Shown one piece after another: positions 20,101 to 26,486 of a stretch of 50,459 nt of DNA; position 1 is the first letter of the stretch, and every line of letters begins with the position of its first letter. The DNA is from Candidatus Shapirobacteria bacterium (GTDB lineage Bacteria; Patescibacteriota; Microgenomatia; PFEM01; JBDRBL01). The stretch spans positions 1 to 50,459 of the forward strand of contig JBDRBL010000021.1 of the NCBI GenBank assembly GCA_043822685.1. Direction: 5' to 3'. The translations under genes were made by a program, and so were the position numbers. The notes below the pieces were generated by a model. The model saw only the letters and a list, made by a program, of their open reading frames with translations. It had not been told where the DNA came from and did not search any database.

Positions 20101-22227
20101 TCAAGCCCCAGTCTTACCCGTTCGCCGCGCCACAATCTTCTCGGTAATATTGCCGGGAACATCCTGATAATGCGACGGCTCCATATAAAAACTCCCCCTG
20201 CCCTGCGTCATACTCCGCAAAGTAGTTGAGTAGCCCGGCACCTCGGCTAAAGGAACCATGCCTTTAACCACGGTCAAGTGGCCCCGCGACTCCGTTCCCA
20301 AAATTTGGGCTCGACGGGACGAGAGATCGCCAATCACGTCTCCCATAAACTCTTCCGGCAGAGTTACTTCCAATTTCATAATCGGTTCCAGCAAAATCGG
20401 CTCGGCTTTTTTGACCGCTCCCTGAAAAGCCATCGAAGCGGCGATTTTAAAAGCAACTTCCGAGGAATCGACTTCATGAAAAGAGCCGTCATAGACGGCC
20501 ACTAAGATATCCGTCACTGAAAAGCCCGCCAAGACGCCCTTTTCTACTGCTTCTTTCACCCCTTTTTCTACCGCCGGAATAAATTCGGAGGGAATCACTC
20601 CACCCTTAATTTCATTTTTAAACTCAAAACCACTGCCGCGCTCCTTGGGCTCGACCCGCAGCAAACAGTGGCCATACTGCCCCCGCCCGCCGGATTGCCG
20701 AATATATTTTCCCTCATCTCGAGCGGTGCTCCGCACCGTTTCCCGATAGGCCACCTGCGGCTCACCGGTACCGGCCACGACGCCAAACTCCCGCTTCATC
20801 CGATCAACAATAATTTCCAGATGTAGCTCACCCATACCGGAGATAATCGTTTGACCGGTTTCATGATCGGAAGAAATTTTAAAAGTGGGGTCTTCTTCCG
20901 ATAGTTTTTTCAAAGCATAACCCAGTTTTTCCTGATCGGCCTTAGTTTTGGGCTCAATTGCCAAAGAAATGACCGGTTCGGGAAAAGAAATTGATTCTAA
21001 AATAATCTCTTTATCTTTTTGGCACAGAGTGTCGCCTGTAGCCGTCTCTTTTAAACCAATCGCCGCCACGATTTCACCGCAAATCGCGGAATTGATAGGC
21101 TCCCGCTGATTCGCGTGCATTAAAAGCAGACGGCCGATGCGTTCCGACTGATGCTTGCTACTGTTCCAAACTTCTTCCCCGGCCCGCAAAGTGCCCGAAT
21201 AAGCCCGCACATAAGTCAATTTCCCTACATGCGGATCAGTTTGAATCTTAAAAGCCAGAGCCGATAAAGGCGCGGCGGCTTCAACCGTGTAAGTCACAGG
21301 GGGAATGTCCAAGGGACTGGGCAAGAAATCGACGACCGCATCCAGCACCGGCTGAACTCCTTTGTTGCGAAGCGATGAGCCGCAAAAAATAGGCACTAAC
21401 TTGCCGGCAATCGTCGCTCGCCGCAAGCCCTGCTTCAACTCTACCACGCTTAAAATCTCTTCGGCCAAATATTTATCCATCACCGCCTCGTCATTTTCGG
21501 CAATTTTCTCAACCAAAATTGCCCGCGCCGAGGCGACTTTTTCCTGATATTCTTCCGGCACCGGCACAATCTGATACTTCTCCCCGGTTTCATCCTCCGG
21601 CGACCAGATCAAAGCTTTTTCTTCCAAAACCAAAACTATGCCCTTAAAGGCATCTTCGCTCCCCATCGGCACGACCATAACCGCCGCATTAGCCCCCAAG
21701 CGCTCCTTGATCATCGCCACTGTCCGCTCAAAATCAGCCCCCAGCTTATCCATTTTATTGACAAAACAAATCCGGGGAACGTGATATTTATCGGCCTGCC
21801 GCCAGACGGTTTCCGATTGCGACTGCACCCCTTCCTCGGCATCAAACACCATAATGCCGCCGTCCAAAACCCGCAGTGAGCGCTCCACTTCAGCGGTAAA
21901 ATCAACGTGACCGGGTGTATCGATAATGTTGAAACGATAAGCATCTTTGGGCACCGCTCCCTGATCCTCGTCCCAAGTGGGAGTCCAAAAGGTGGTGGTG
22001 GCCGCCGAAACAATGGTGATCCCGCGTTCGCGCTCTTGGGCCATCCAGTCCATCTGGGTCGTCCCCTCGTCAATATCGCCAATCTTGTATGAACGGCCGG
22101 TATAAAACAGCACCCGTTCGGTCGTAGTCGTTTTGCCGGCGTCGATATGAGCGATAATGCCGATGTTGCGGATCTTATCTAGAGCCACACTTCTCTTTTT
22201 GGCGGTATCTTCGTTGGTTACAGACAT
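20101..22227 (-). CDS. fusA: Elongation factor G
   Basis: 708-aa ORF: [32 protein letters not shown], plus domain IV/V motifs. Confidence 0.98.
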
Positions 22228-22232
22228 AAAAC

Positions 22233-22255
22233 AAAAAAACTGCCCTAAAGCAGTT
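22233..22255 (-). terminator. Terminator/attenuator-like hairpin plus U7 run 5 nt upstream of the fusA ATG
   Basis: The minus strand reads AACTGC-TTTAGG-GCAGTT followed by TTTTTTTGTTTT-ATG. It sits downstream of TGGTATAAT (the hexamer is the complement of 22272-22277). Confidence 0.4.
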
Positions 22256-22316
22256 GAGCTTTAACGAAGACATTATACCAAACCTCCCCCTCCTCGTCCA
22301 GAATCAAACTCTCTCG

Positions 22317-22580
22317 CTATTTCTTGGTTATAAACTCAAATCCTTCTCTGCACGTATGTTGAACAATTATTCCCATCCCTAACCCCAATAAAACAACAGT
22401 TACTATTCCTTGAGTTAAAAATCCAATGAAAAATAACAGAACTCCAAACAAACTGTGGTGAAGATGATACTCCCCCAAAAAAGGCTTTCTACCACATCTC
22501 TTTGTTATTAACACCCAAACCTCGCCAAAGACAAAACCGAACAGAACCGCCAGAAAAAATATTAAAATTTCCATACCCAA
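22317..22580 (-). CDS. Small hypothetical integral membrane protein (87 aa)
   Basis: ORF with three hydrophobic segments in AT-rich island sequence. No family recognised. Confidence 0.5.
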   Translation of the reverse strand: MGMEILIFFLAVLFGFVFGEVWVLITKRCGRKPFLGEYHLHHSLFGVLLFFIGFLTQGIVTVVLLGLGMGIIVQHTCREGFEFITKK

Positions 22581-22660
22581 AGTATATCAAATACGAAAAG
22601 TGGAGTTTATCAACGAAATTTTGGTCAAAAGTTAAGCCGGTTTTTCTTTTTACCCTCTTA

Positions 22661-22669
22661 TGTTAAAAT
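22661..22669 (+). promoter_or_regulatory. Extended -10 TGTTAAAAT, 6 nt upstream of the MNT gene ATG
   Basis: The sequence reads TGTTAAAATctaatcATG, which leaves no room for a Shine-Dalgarno. Confidence 0.4.
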
Positions 22670-22675
22670 CTAATC

Positions 22676-22969
22676 ATGACAATTCGAGATATCAGCAGTA
22701 AAGTTGTTCCCACCTTAAAGCGCCAAGGAGTAACCAAAGCGGCAATCTTTGGTTCGGTAGCACGAGGAGAGGCAAAAAAAAATAGCGATGTGGACATGTT
22801 GATCAAATTCAGCGGTAAAAAGAGCTTGCTAGATTTGGTTAGGCTTCAATATGTTTTAGAGGATAAGTTGGGGAAGAAAGTTGATCTTCTAACCTATGAT
22901 TCTATTCACCCGCGACTTAAGGACATTATTTTGAATGAACAACAGGTGATTTATGATCAAAGATCCTAA
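22676..22969 (+). CDS. Minimal nucleotidyltransferase (MNT), antitoxin-type partner of HEPN
   Basis: 97-aa ORF with the GSVARGEAKKNSDVDMLI motif (GS-x-RG...D-x-D). Confidence 0.85.
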   Translation: MTIRDISSKVVPTLKRQGVTKAAIFGSVARGEAKKNSDVDMLIKFSGKKSLLDLVRLQYVLEDKLGKKVDLLTYDSIHPRLKDIILNEQQVIYDQRS

Positions 22970-23294
22970 AATTTTTCTTGGTCACATTTTAGACAGCATC
23001 ACTGAAATTGAAAATACTCTTAAATCCGTATCAGAAAAGGATTTTTCTCAAAATGTTCAAGCTCAAGACGCTGTGATTCGAAGGATAGAAATTATTGGTG
23101 AGGCAACGAAAAATTTGCCCATCACCATTACTAAGAGATATCCCAAAATTGAATGGCGTGAAATCGCCGGTATGCGAGATAAGTTGATTCATCAATACTT
23201 TGGCGTGGACGTTAAAATCGTTTGGGAAACGGCTAAAAAGGACATCCCCAAACTAAAAAGACAAATTTCAAAAGTTTTAGAAAATGAAGGTTAG
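22953..23294 (+). CDS. HEPN/DUF86-family protein (toxin-type partner of MNT)
   Basis: 113-aa ORF that overlaps the MNT gene by 17 nt. It has an Rx4H motif in GMRDKLIHQYFGVD. Confidence 0.85.
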   Translation: MIKDPKIFLGHILDSITEIENTLKSVSEKDFSQNVQAQDAVIRRIEIIGEATKNLPITITKRYPKIEWREIAGMRDKLIHQYFGVDVKIVWETAKKDIPKLKRQISKVLENEG

Positions 23295-23574
23295 GAAACC
23301 AAACGGCCATATCAGCTCTCTTGAAATCGAACAGCTCTACGATTGGTTACTAACAAACGAGAAGGAAAGAAAGGAAGCTGTCTTTACTTGGACATCGGGC
23401 CTAGCAAGATTTATTGGCTATATTGTTGAAAGATATTACAAGCAAAAGGAAAACCCCAAAAAGTATCCCAAATACAAAAATACTTTCTGCACCAAGCCTT
23501 TTATGTGTTTAAACTGTTTCGAAAACAATAAACACGGTGTTTACAGAAAAATAGCAAAAACGACCTTAAACTGA
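23284..23574 (+). CDS. Hypothetical protein (96 aa), third gene of the MNT-HEPN unit
   Basis: ORF overlapping the HEPN stop by 11 nt. It is Lys/Tyr-rich with a C-terminal Cys cluster (FCTKPFMCLNCF). No family recognised. Confidence 0.4.
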   Translation: MKVRKPNGHISSLEIEQLYDWLLTNEKERKEAVFTWTSGLARFIGYIVERYYKQKENPKKYPKYKNTFCTKPFMCLNCFENNKHGVYRKIAKTTLN

Positions 23575-23702
23575 ATAAGTTAGAATACATTTGCGACATC
23601 AACAAGAAAATTTAACACCAACTTGGACGGTCGTTAATAAGTGTGTTAAATTTAATTGAGGAGGTTGCGCCATAATCTGCACGATTATGGCGTGATACCA
23701 GC

Positions 23703-23828
23703 TCAACCAACCCTTTCCTGCCTCACTTTTTCAAAAAGAATAATCGCCGCGGCAGCGCTGACGTTGAGAGAATCAAGACCCGGCTGCATGGGGGTGGTCT
23801 GCGTCGTCCTCACTCGTATCGTTTTCAT
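23703..23828 (-). pseudogene. Internally deleted remnant of a second TrmH/SpoU-type methyltransferase gene (41-codon mini-ORF)
   Basis: The minus strand encodes MKTIRVR-TTQTTP-MQPGLDSLNVSAAAAIILFEKVRQERVG*. The first 7 codons match the 5' end of the intact gene at 24363-25106 (KTIRVR). The last roughly 28 codons match its 3' end (MQPGLDSLNVSASAAIVLFEKVRQEK). Confidence 0.8.
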
Positions 23829-23895
23829 TCGTTGGCCCTTTTTGCCACCTTGTCACAAGGGGCATAAAAAGATACAATACCTTTGGAGGTAGAAT

Positions 23896-24114
23896 ATGCG
23901 CAAAGTCAATCTAAAAAATATTGTTTGGAAAGAGGGAAAATATTACGTTTCCCAGTGTCTTAACGTGGAAGTTTCTAGCTTTGGTAAAACAAAAAAAGAA
24001 GCTTTGGATAACTTAAATGAGGCGTTGGAATTGTATTTCGAAGAAGTAAAAATTCCTAAAATAGCCGAAATTCAACGACCCGAAGTAGTAAATTTTCCCT
24101 TGTGTTATGCCTAA
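23896..24114 (+). CDS. hicB: HicB-family antitoxin (short form)
   Basis: 72-aa ORF: WKEGKYYVSQCLNVEVSSFGKTKKEALDNLNEALELYFEE. GGAGG lies 6 nt upstream of the ATG, and the ORF overlaps hicA by 8 nt. Confidence 0.8.
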   Translation: MRKVNLKNIVWKEGKYYVSQCLNVEVSSFGKTKKEALDNLNEALELYFEEVKIPKIAEIQRPEVVNFPLCYA

Positions 24115-24316
24115 ATTATGCTCTTCGCGGCATATTATTGGTGTTCTTCAAAAAAATAACTTCTTTTTTGTCTCTCGAAAGGGTAGCCACAGCAAATACC
24201 GCAAAACTGGCAAACCAACACTGACGGTAATTGTCCCTGCGGGAAAAAAAGAAATTCCCCACGGTACTTTCAGGTCCATCTTGCGCCAGAGCAAATTAGA
24301 AGAAAAAAAATTTTAA
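24107..24316 (+). CDS. hicA: HicA-family mRNA-interferase toxin
   Basis: 69-aa ORF: IIGVLQKNNFFFVSRKGSHSKYRK...VIVPAGKKEIPHGTFRSILRQ. Confidence 0.8.
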   Translation: MPKLCSSRHIIGVLQKNNFFFVSRKGSHSKYRKTGKPTLTVIVPAGKKEIPHGTFRSILRQSKLEEKKF

Positions 24317-24362
24317 AAGTCTCGTAGCAAGCGGAACAGGTCTTGCACGATAATCTGCGCGA

Positions 24363-25106
24363 TTATGGCGTGCTTATCTTTTCCTGCCGGACCTTTTCAA
24401 AAAGCACAATTGCGGCACTAGCACTAACATTTAGAGAATCAAGACCTGGTTGCATAGGAATAGCGAGTTTTTGATCGCACCGAGTGGCAACCGTTTCGGA
24501 CAAACCTTCTCTTTCATCACCCAAGACAAAAGCCACCGGCCCGGTCAGATCGGTAGCAAAATAAGATTTACCAGCCATCTCTAAAGAAAAAGTTTTAATG
24601 CCGTTTTTTTTAAGTTCGTTTAAAGTGGTAAAAATATTTAATTTTACCCAGGGGATTCGCGCCACGGTGCCCATTGACAGATGAAAAGTTTCCTCATTGA
24701 GGAAAAACTCTTTTTCGCCCTGATAAAAAAGGCCGTTAACTCCAGCCGCAAAAGCGGTCCGCACAATCAAACCAATATTATTAGGATAAGTAACGCGATG
24801 AAGAAGGAGAAAAAACGGCGACTGTTTGTGGTTATACAAATCAGCCAAAAGCTCATCCAGAGACCAATCATCCTCAATCATTAGTCGTCCCAAAATTACT
24901 TCCCGACTGTCGCCAGCGCGACCACGTTCCATCTGGTGATAAGGAGTTCTCTCAATCGCTATTCCCTGTTTTTTGGCCACCGATAAAATCTTTTGAGTCA
25001 AAACATCTTTCTTAAGATTGTCCACCACGATAATTTTTTCAAAACTCTTGCCCGCGTTCAACAACTCCCATAAAACATTTTTATTTCTCACCCGTATCGT
25101 TTTCAA
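24363..25106 (-). CDS. TrmH/SpoU-family RNA 2'-O-methyltransferase
   Basis: SpoU motifs are present: NIGLIVRTAFAAGVNG, FVLGDEREGLS and IPMQPGLDSLNVSASAAIVLFE. The TTG at 25106 is the preferred start because it aligns with the ATG of the remnant copy and lies 8 nt after a TGTTATAAT. The ORF-track start is 25115. Confidence 0.85.
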   Translation of the reverse strand: MKTIRVRNKNVLWELLNAGKSFEKIIVVDNLKKDVLTQKILSVAKKQGIAIERTPYHQMERGRAGDSREVILGRLMIEDDWSLDELLADLYNHKQSPFFLLLHRVTYPNNIGLIVRTAFAAGVNGLFYQGEKEFFLNEETFHLSMGTVARIPWVKLNIFTTLNELKKNGIKTFSLEMAGKSYFATDLTGPVAFVLGDEREGLSETVATRCDQKLAIPMQPGLDSLNVSASAAIVLFEKVRQEKISTP

Positions 25107-25114
25107 TGGTTTCA

Positions 25115-25123
25115 ATTATAACA
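25115..25123 (-). promoter_or_regulatory. Extended -10 TGTTATAAT for the trmH-like gene
   Basis: The minus strand reads TGTTATAAT-tgaaacca-TTG, directly after the terminator-like structure at 25121-25161. Confidence 0.45.
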
Positions 25124-25161
25124 AAACAAAAACCCAGCGGGCCTTGCGGCGCAAGCTGAGG
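25121..25161 (-). terminator. Putative intrinsic terminator after the 130-aa gene
   Basis: The minus strand reads CCTCAGCTTGCGCCGCAAGGCCCGCTGGG, a GC-rich imperfect stem-loop, followed by TTTTTGTTTTG. Confidence 0.45.
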
Positions 25162-25180
25162 CGTTGATAGTGGCTCATGC

Positions 25181-25573
25181 CTACTTCACCGCCGCGGTGA
25201 GCTCGTTGAAGGTGTCGTCGGTGAGAGCACTGATGATCTGGCCATTTTCCAGAGTAACTCGCATTTGATGATTACCGCTTTCGTTTTGGAAAAAATAGAC
25301 AAATTCCCAGCAAGTATCGCATTTAAGCAAATTCAAAGACGACTCTAATTTTAACTGACTGCCGCCAGCTTGATAACTTTGAGAAGTCAAAACAAAATCC
25401 CGCGCCGCTTCTTCACTCTTGGCCTGATTCCAAATCCGATCGTTCTCTTCGGCGGCTGTCGGGGCTGAGGTAATCGTTTCTAATTGAGAGGGAAAATTTT
25501 TGCCCCGAAAAAAAACAATTCCCAAAGCTAAAAGGGCCATCACTCCCGCCAGCATTGCCAGTGTTTTTCCCAT
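25181..25573 (-). CDS. Hypothetical membrane-anchored or secreted protein (130 aa)
   Basis: ORF with an N-terminal hydrophobic helix (LAMLAGVMALLALGIVFF). It lies directly downstream of rpsG. Confidence 0.6.
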   Translation of the reverse strand: MGKTLAMLAGVMALLALGIVFFRGKNFPSQLETITSAPTAAEENDRIWNQAKSEEAARDFVLTSQSYQAGGSQLKLESSLNLLKCDTCWEFVYFFQNESGNHQMRVTLENGQIISALTDDTFNELTAAVK

Positions 25574-25591
25574 AACAGTATTATCCTTCCT

Positions 25592-26071
25592 TTACCAGCG
25601 AAAATGGGCAAAGGCACGGTTAGCCTCCGCCATGCGGTGAACATCCTCCTTTTTCTTCACCGCTCCACCTTGATTGTTCAAAGCCTCTAAAATCTCCGCC
25701 GCCAATTTTTCGGCAAAATGGTGATACTCTTTGTTTGGCCGCGCCCGCGCCGCCTCAATCAACCAGCGAATTCCCAGCGACTCCCGCCGCTCCCCCCGAA
25801 CCGGCGTCGGCACCTGATACGTCGCCCCGCCGACCCTTCTTGACCGCACCTCCACCCCGGGTTTAATACTTTCCAAAGCCTGGTCAAAAACCGCCAGCGC
25901 CTCTTTACCCGTCTTTGTTTTGATTATCTCCATCGCCTGGTAAACTTCTCTTTGAGCCGCACTCTTTTTGCCGCTTTTCATCGAGCGATTAATCAATTTG
26001 GCGACCAATCGACTCTGATAAATCAGATCCGGCTCAATCCTTCTTTTTTTTACCTTACTCACTCTTGACAC
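25592..26071 (-). CDS. rpsG: 30S ribosomal protein S7
   Basis: Contains [28 protein letters not shown] and ends [10 protein letters not shown]. The GTG at 26071 is preferred because AAGGAGG lies 5 nt upstream. The ORF track extends to 26143 inside rpsL. Confidence 0.93.
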
Positions 26072-26486
26072 TGCCCCCTCCTTCTTTGCGTGTTCCATAA
26101 ATTGACCTTGCTTTTTTCCGCCCCACCACCCCGGCGGCATCATATTTACCCCGCACGATATGATACTTTACCCCCGGTAAATCCTGCACATGTCCCCCCC
26201 TTACCAAGACAATTCCATGCTCAGCTAAATTATGACCCTCGCCTTGAATATAAGCCGTCACTTCCTGCTTATTGGACAATCTCACTCTGGCCACCTTCCG
26301 CAGCGCCGAATTAGGCTTCCTGGGCGTCATTGTTTTTACCAGCGTCACCACTCCTCTTTTTTGCGGATTAATCGTCGACACAATCCGCCGGCGCCTAGCA
26401 TTGAAACTCCTCCGCAAGGCCGCTGTTTTTACCTTCTTCTTTATTTTTTTTCGCCCCTGGCGAACCAATTGGATAATTGTTGGCAT
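26055..26486 (-). CDS. rpsL: 30S ribosomal protein S12
   Basis: 143-aa ORF: [13 protein letters not shown]...[18 protein letters not shown]...[18 protein letters not shown]. Confidence 0.97.

Follow-up and report, generated by a model that had tools for sequence, protein, structure and literature searches.

A probable relic of a second RlmB-like methyltransferase gene beside a hicBA cassette in the rpsG–fusA interval of a Candidatus Shapirobacteria genome

Orphan gene ends beside inserted cassettes are known from the C-terminal displacement of Rhs and CdiA and from the 3′ pseudogene of icd next to prophage e14. At the capsule locus of Neisseria meningitidis, which lies in an island assembled by recombination, galE1 is intact and galE2 is truncated. 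Gene displacement in situ, in which a homologue takes over at the position of the resident gene, has reportedly been described as well, and a stage at which both copies are present is its expected intermediate. The locus that we describe here, in which an intact methyltransferase gene and a 41-codon stub of a second copy lie on either side of a hicBA cassette, is a real but ordinary recombination scar, a displaced or truncated second copy beside an imported cassette being a familiar class. It is like the Rhs/CdiA and icd–e14 cases in that a diverged partial copy of the gene lies in direct orientation just beyond the cassette, with the upstream copy functional and the old piece promoterless and decaying, and it differs from them in that the relic keeps the first 25 nt of the gene along with its 3′ end and in the absence of an integrase, a toxin-tip polymorphism or an identical core. 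Because the stub retains both ends, a whole second copy would once have been present and been gutted later. The likeness to N. meningitidis lies in an intact gene and a truncated, diverged duplicate flanking DNA imported between related lineages; here, however, the cargo is a 0.5-kb toxin-antitoxin pair, the host is an uncultured bacterium with a reduced genome, and the comparison concerns one genome.

The window, by which we mean the whole stretch of DNA that was analysed, comprises 50,459 nt of a Candidatus Shapirobacteria bacterium (GTDB lineage Bacteria; Patescibacteriota; Microgenomatia; PFEM01; JBDRBL01), namely positions 1–50,459 of the forward strand of contig JBDRBL010000021.1 in assembly GCA_043822685.1. 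The source is a metagenome-assembled genome of 557 kb in 30 contigs, from an ultra-small groundwater bacterium, with a whole-genome GC of 0.454 and a mean GC3 of 0.48 (sd 0.07). A reading of TGA as a sense codon was rejected, since the long genes, rpoC and fusA among them, have open frames under table 11. The order of the genes along the minus strand is rpoC, rpsL, rpsG, and an insert separates rpsG from fusA:

20101–22227, minus strand: fusA
22228–25591: the 3.4-kb insert separating fusA and rpsG, which holds the stub, hicBA, the intact methyltransferase gene and an MNT-HepT unit
between fusA and the MNT-HepT unit, in the minus-strand order of features: an 87-aa ORF
22676–23574, plus strand: a second toxin-antitoxin unit, MNT, HepT and a 96-aa ORF, convergent on the stub
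23703–23828, minus strand: the stub ORF of 41 codons
23834–24342, plus strand: the hicBA cassette
24343–24372, minus strand: hairpin 1, over the TAA stop of the intact gene, a degenerate copy with a 6-bp stem
24363–25106, minus strand: the intact gene for a predicted SpoU/TrmH-class, RlmB-like RNA 2′-O-methyltransferase of 247 aa, with a TGTTATAAT box 8 nt before its TTG start
between the intact gene and rpsG, in the minus-strand order of features: a 130-aa ORF after rpsG, then a terminator-like hairpin
25592–26143, minus strand: rpsG

Over about 22230–25120 the GC content is 0.34–0.46, against about 0.52 in the flanking genes. The rpsG–fusA distance is 39–250 nt in many relatives of the window's genome, and contigs of other organisms in public runs likewise join across the insert, skipping the 3.4-kb segment. 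We also observed that the spacer varies across the order: besides the many genomes with 39–250 nt, others have 500–1300 nt (loci L021–L049), and at 12 of 29 loci there is no fusA less than 1.5 kb from rpsG. The spacer looks like an insertion hot spot within the str operon. Homologues of the island genes were not found next to rpsG in relatives. No ORF for an integrase or recombinase and no tRNA gene was found in or near the insert, whose ORFs code for the HicB-like protein, HicA, MNT, HepT and small unknown proteins, and Rfam and tRNA scans of the island returned nothing relevant.

The intact gene is RlmB-like in architecture, and from its domain matches its product is a predicted RNA 2′-O-methyltransferase. 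PF00588 covers model positions 2–142 of 142 (4e-34, 118.2 bits against a cut-off of 29.7), and motifs 1–3 (N..G...R; LG.E..G; IPM...SLNVS.A) are present, together with all 40 columns that are invariant over the 30 members, 52–64% identical to the window's protein, from which we built a family profile. The protein thus resembles RlmB, the 23S rRNA Gm2251 2′-O-methyltransferase of the SpoU/TrmH SPOUT class, in PF00588, in a full-length match to TIGR00186 (positions 7–239) and in its invariant motifs. It differs from RlmB in scoring under the NCBIfam equivalog cut-offs, with 141.7 bits against 160.15 for TIGR00186 and 106.6 against 366 for NF008386. The protein-database call likewise starts at the TTG at 25106, and its N-terminus likewise reads MKTIRVR. 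Besides this locus, the genome holds no match to a SpoU-class methyltransferase, even at E ≤ 10, and the acquired RlmB-like gene is therefore its sole representative of that class. Another kind of SpoU gene, 180–190 aa long, is present in several relatives within the order and class. One 172-nt contig, assembled from a metatranscriptome library of groundwater, matches 24347–24518, the 3′ end of the intact gene, without a difference. It ends where the distal foot of hairpin 1 lies, which hints weakly at the 3′ end of a transcript, although the contig could be DNA carry-over.

On the other side of the hicBA cassette, the stub and its surroundings reproduce the two ends of this gene. A repeat finder returned three collinear direct repeats (D4, D1 and D3) that tie the minus strand at 23665–23833 to the intact gene. 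Read 5′ to 3′ on the minus strand, the parts are:

23809–23833, minus strand: 5′ homology block D4, from 5 nt upstream of the start codon to codon 7, 22/25 (88%) identical to 25087–25111
23793–23808, minus strand: a 16-nt junction over the 612-nt deletion, read as codons T-T-Q-T-T
23714–23792, minus strand: 3′ coding block D1, 79 nt, compared with 24380–24458, 78% identical in nucleotides and 24/28 in amino acids, with SPOUT motif 3 (PM..G.DSLNVS...E)
23703–23705, minus strand: a premature in-frame TGA, the stop of the stub
23685–23702, minus strand: the former gene tail past the premature TGA, with the frame kept
23665–23694, minus strand: hairpin 2, over the ancestral stop codon, with a 10–11-bp stem and no U-tract after it; its repeat with 24343–24372 (D3) is 30 nt long and 90% identical

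The five codons that follow the premature TGA in frame end in T-P-TAA, the intact gene's own ending, within the hairpin. The start-to-start spacings of the repeats are 666, 678 and 1278 nt, from which follow an exact in-frame deletion of 612 nt (204 codons) and 12 extra nucleotides in the stub between its coding part and the hairpin. Neither flank of the intact gene can be aligned with the junction, and the exact breakpoint is therefore not definable. The start codon is ATG in the stub and TTG in the intact copy. A preliminary description of this DNA had pointed to an intact mini-ORF beginning with MKTIRVR like the methyltransferase gene, to a match with that gene's 3′ end that continues into a shared hairpin past the stop, to an in-frame loss of about 200 central codons and to a hicBA cassette exactly between the copies; each of these observations holds, and the cassette fills the whole gap. 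A six-frame search of the whole 557-kb genome matched only the stub (E = 1.4e-10) and the intact gene, and neither the 5′ word nor the hairpin occurs elsewhere in the genome, even with 4–6 mismatches allowed.

With 204 codons missing, the catalytic domain is incomplete. PF00588 aligns with the stub only at model positions 121–142 of 142 (19.6 bits, below the cut-off), and the stub differs from RlmB in having motif 3 only, without the SAM-binding motifs 1 and 2. The rest of its sequence shows almost no decay: of the family-invariant residues, the 11 that fall within retained sequence are all present (R7 in D4 and ten in D1). The stub therefore combines homology to a functional gene with the disabling lesions of a pseudogene, namely the 612-nt deletion and the premature TGA. 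No -10 box was found upstream of it.

The two copies are sister sequences, yet their divergence is old and took place under purifying selection. A maximum-likelihood tree joins them as a clade (SH-aLRT 96), and 31 of the 35 retained residues of the stub are identical to the intact protein, compared with at most 26 of 35 for any of 100 other family members. In a set of 5.8 billion proteins, searched for longer proteins and for proteins of similar length, the stub returned only the neighbouring gene and itself. The stop-codon hairpin and the T-P-stop tail are absent at about 30 other family loci. The 28 aligned 3′ codons contain 20 nucleotide differences, which amount to 12 synonymous codon changes and four replacements, and over 34 codons dS is 1.67 and dN 0.075, a ratio of 0.045. 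From the high dS, the low dN/dS and the retained invariant residues it follows that the stub's ancestor was functional through nearly all of the divergence, and the disabling deletion would be recent relative to it. Extrapolation from the family gives, very roughly, 70% identity between the copies at full length, and we estimate their protein identity at about 70–80%, the synonymous sites being saturated. The preliminary description had proposed placing both copies on a tree, where a grouping as recent paralogues without a difference in composition would speak against its reading; the copies do group together but, with a dS of about 1.7, are not recent paralogues.

On this evidence, the 41-codon stub is probably the dead relic, that is, the pseudogene, of a second and once-functional copy of the RlmB-like SpoU methyltransferase gene and not a gene in its own right, and the best explanation of the locus is that two related foreign versions of the gene recombined and one of them was later gutted. 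We put the probability of relic and history taken jointly at about 0.72. In the proposed history, incoming DNA would have recombined so as to place two related versions of the gene, both foreign to the host's order and class, side by side at the variable rpsG–fusA spot, and the same event would have put hicBA exactly between them. The simplest geometry would be a single Campbell-type crossover within the gene, in which the resident homologue recombines with a small circularised fragment that bears hicBA together with the methyltransferase gene and its hairpin, the product being gene–hicBA–gene in direct orientation. After such a single crossover, homology should begin a short way before the start codon, at the point of circle closure, and end about 10 nt past the hairpin, at the site where the donor had received hicBA. 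The observed limits agree exactly, as hicBA occupies precisely the interval that separates the end of the homology on the 3′ side from its beginning on the 5′ side. As homology extends no further than 5 nt upstream from the start codon (7 counting its first base), the downstream copy would lack the TGTTATAAT -10 box, and without this box it would be redundant and silent. It would then have been disabled by one in-frame deletion of 612 nt and by the premature TGA. The in-frame outcome has a one-in-three chance and carries no weight. Three elements of this account are conclusions that we infer, namely the route of recombination, the silence of the stub and the recency of the deletion. The preliminary description had suggested looking for relatives with only one copy or with an intact tandem pair; our search found neither, and it is thus from the geometry of the locus that the route and the order of events would be read.

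That both versions are foreign is suggested by the distribution of the family. Searched with the family profile, the 22 remaining genomes of the order yielded no member, and 400 sampled genomes of the class yielded none with a comparable score; seven of the latter contain a distant RlmB type (162–178 bits against 411 for the window's gene). Since the family was not found in the rest of the order or in the sampled class, both copies look acquired, and neither looks native to the host lineage. Judged from record titles, family members occur in other ultra-small lineages (Wolfebacteria, Jorgensenbacteria, Dojkabacteria, WWE3), and the best protein matches to the intact gene are 64–65% identical. 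Synteny around the family in other genomes is partial, and the homologues of its conserved neighbours are scattered over five contigs here, so that no "empty canonical site" is definable. At about 100 family loci we found no second copy within 10 kb, no hicBA and no adjacency to rpsG or fusA. Viral contigs yielded one distant SpoU match (34% identity) and no match to the hairpin. Among species representatives, the highest best-segment identity (64%) belongs to a homologue at L132:10001–10740 (genome G041, contig C14 2508–3247). This homologue is split into two frames, residues 1–95 and 91–244, and is either a frameshifted pseudogene or the product of a sequencing error. In a WWE3 genome, the family methyltransferase gene is immediately preceded by an MNT-type nucleotidyltransferase gene (L136:9569–9838), a further case of a toxin-antitoxin component next to this family.

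The alternative that survives best, though we consider it unlikely, is an old tandem duplication within the genome, after which both paralogues were kept for long, hicBA was inserted between them and one was lost recently. The copies are indeed adjacent, in direct orientation and each other's nearest kin, and the hairpin in their 3′ flank is common to both. However, a dS of about 1.7 with a dN/dS of 0.045 would require a redundant pair to be kept for very long in a 557-kb genome, the five nearest genomes have one family copy each, and none of the roughly 100 family loci has a second copy within 10 kb. Moreover, hicBA would need to have landed exactly on the duplication joint, and copies residing in the same genome should not drift apart in base composition, as these have done: nine third positions have A/T in the intact copy and G/C in the stub, and two have the opposite, a weak bias over 28 codons (binomial p = 0.065).

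A lean of this kind, with mostly synonymous changes and G/C-ending codons in the stub, had been noted in the preliminary description and is real as far as it goes. The reading drawn from it there makes the stub a native core gene of the lineage, inherited vertically, which lost its function once hicBA had come in with a homologue that was foreign and richer in AT; it is less probable still than the duplication. In its favour are the GC3 of the stub (0.54–0.57), which is like that of rpsG and fusA (0.56–0.59), that of the intact gene (0.40), which is like that of the toxin-antitoxin genes (0.32–0.40), and the position of hicBA, which adjoins the intact copy. Set against the genome, these values lose their force: the ribosomal neighbours are at the GC-rich extreme of the genome and the stub resembles only these, and the intact gene, at the 11th percentile for GC3, has a genome-typical codon usage (58th percentile of the codon-usage score). 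Of the 14 codon pairs that differ synonymously, the one that the genome uses more often is in the stub only six times and in the intact copy eight times. Composition does not mark the intact copy as an intruder. A GC3 change-point search found no mosaic break in the intact gene (permutation p = 0.51), and a crossover within the gene is thus neither supported nor excluded by this search. The failure to find the family in the 22 other genomes of the order and the 400 sampled from the class also argues against a native gene, as does the position of the stub itself within the insert that splits rpsG from fusA. Nor do the copies look like distant xenologues. For xenologous displacement in situ the two genes should be phylogenetically distant and the site should be the gene's conserved home; here they form a clade (SH-aLRT 96) with the 31/35 against ≤ 26/35 identity given above, and none of the roughly 100 family loci lies beside rpsG or fusA.

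A weaker form, in which the stub stems from the earlier of two arrivals, may hold and is counted under the recombination of two foreign versions that we favour. Which of the two came first is a matter of near even odds. An earlier arrival of the stub would fit the G/C lean of its codons and the good state of its hairpin (z about -4, compared with -1.1 for that of the intact copy); an earlier arrival of the intact copy would fit the stub's place in AT-rich foreign DNA and the genome-typical codon usage of the intact gene.

Two further alternatives have very little in their favour. The preliminary description had also considered the two copies as direct-repeat scars, and attL/attR scars of a site-specific integration into the 3′ end of the methyltransferase gene would indeed place diverged direct copies of that end on both sides of a cassette, as at phage and island integration sites in genes. 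We regard this as most improbable: the insert and its surroundings have no integrase or recombinase ORF and no tRNA gene, the repeats are 78–90% identical and have no exact run longer than 14 nt to serve as a core, the stub includes the first 25 nt of the gene as well, which an att duplication does not produce, and the hairpin is not repeated in the genome or in the viral contigs. Equally hard to credit is a functional 41-aa micro-protein, for example a SPOUT dimer-interface fragment modulating the intact enzyme, or a kept regulatory or terminator element. Its open frame with an ATG start, the intact invariant residues of its retained parts and its strong hairpin speak for it, but no homologous small protein was found: in the set of 5.8 billion proteins, no protein of 22–72 aa or longer matches the stub better than the neighbouring gene does, which also means that the stub does not belong to any conserved small gene, the case that the preliminary description had named as contrary to its own reading. 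Moreover, the stub has no -10 box upstream, its frame has the one-in-three chance of being kept, the premature TGA removes the conserved tail, and the SAM-binding motifs 1 and 2 are absent.

Pieces of the locus are also found in DNA assembled independently. Only four public runs hold 5–7% of the sampled words, all as assembled contigs of low depth. Pieces identical to the window cover 21800–21915, 23441–23730, 24347–24518 and 25340–25604, the second being a 290-nt contig from a public groundwater run. Among these low-depth contigs, which cover the window partly, there was no structural variant and none that bridges hicB to the stub. An assembly or binning artefact joining the alleles of two strains, which a 30-contig metagenome-assembled genome might raise, is very unlikely, as a de Bruijn assembler would not be misled by exact words of 14 nt, the longest that the copies have in common, short contigs of independent origin are identical to the window over 23441–23730 and 24347–24518, and the structure is ordered and collinear, unlike a simple allele swap.

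The hairpins set some bounds to a view of the stub as a pseudogene and nothing else. We observed that the stop-codon hairpin is conserved at 27 of 30 positions between the copies, compared with about one third of synonymous sites, and that the dead copy keeps a perfect 10–11-bp stem, whereas the stem of the working gene is degraded to 6 bp. The z-scores are -3.7 and -4.0 for hairpin 2 and -1.1 for hairpin 1. Together with the little decay of the stub, the better-kept hairpin leaves room for some selection on the stretch, and its pairing suggests that hairpin 2 is still in use, perhaps as a terminator for the convergent MNT–HepT–orf96 unit. An imperfect 26-nt inverted repeat follows hairpin 2 at 23593–23668.

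The stub is best annotated simply as a pseudogene. If the recombination of two foreign versions is the right account, the locus would serve as a dated marker that even a reduced genome of 557 kb takes up DNA of related lineages and recombines it within the rpsL–rpsG–fusA operon. A gene for rRNA or tRNA modification that was not found in the rest of the order would have been acquired, probably in two versions, and toxin-antitoxin cassettes would sit exactly at the recombination joints. A more general route of gene turnover in ultra-small (CPR) bacteria is a tentative and rather doubtful extension of this account. In such a route, small toxin-antitoxin cassettes would travel with an adjacent housekeeping-type gene, or the end of one, as a handle of homology for recombination; each arrival would duplicate the resident homologue, strip its promoter and so seal its loss, and the toxin-antitoxin pair would shield the newcomer from deletion. 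Should the pattern prove recurrent, it would offer a mechanism for the spread of toxin-antitoxin systems in bacteria with few recognisable mobile elements, and for the replacement of acquired genes by one another there.

Finally, the cassette between the copies consists of the following features:

23850–23878, plus strand: a promoter-like TTGTCA-17-TACAAT ahead of hicBA
23896–24114, plus strand: a hicB-like gene with a 72-aa product, whose assignment to HicB is weak
24107–24316, plus strand: hicA (PF07927, 2.4e-14, 53.6 bits against a cut-off of 27)

The hicB-like product has sub-threshold matches only (DUF7387, 24.8 bits against 27.9; a UPF0150-like match with E = 0.085), and we infer its pairing with hicA from the 8-nt overlap of the two genes. 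A 13-nt palindrome, CCTTGTCACAAGG, at 23848–23860 on the plus strand overlaps the -35-like hexamer of the promoter-like site and is a candidate operator, though the HicB-like protein is without a recognisable DNA-binding domain. In public groundwater runs, the hicB-like gene (23894–24044) has many relatives of about 82–85% nucleotide identity, one of them on a contig of about 800x depth, and other organisms of those groundwater samples appear to carry the hicBA cassette family widely and in abundance.
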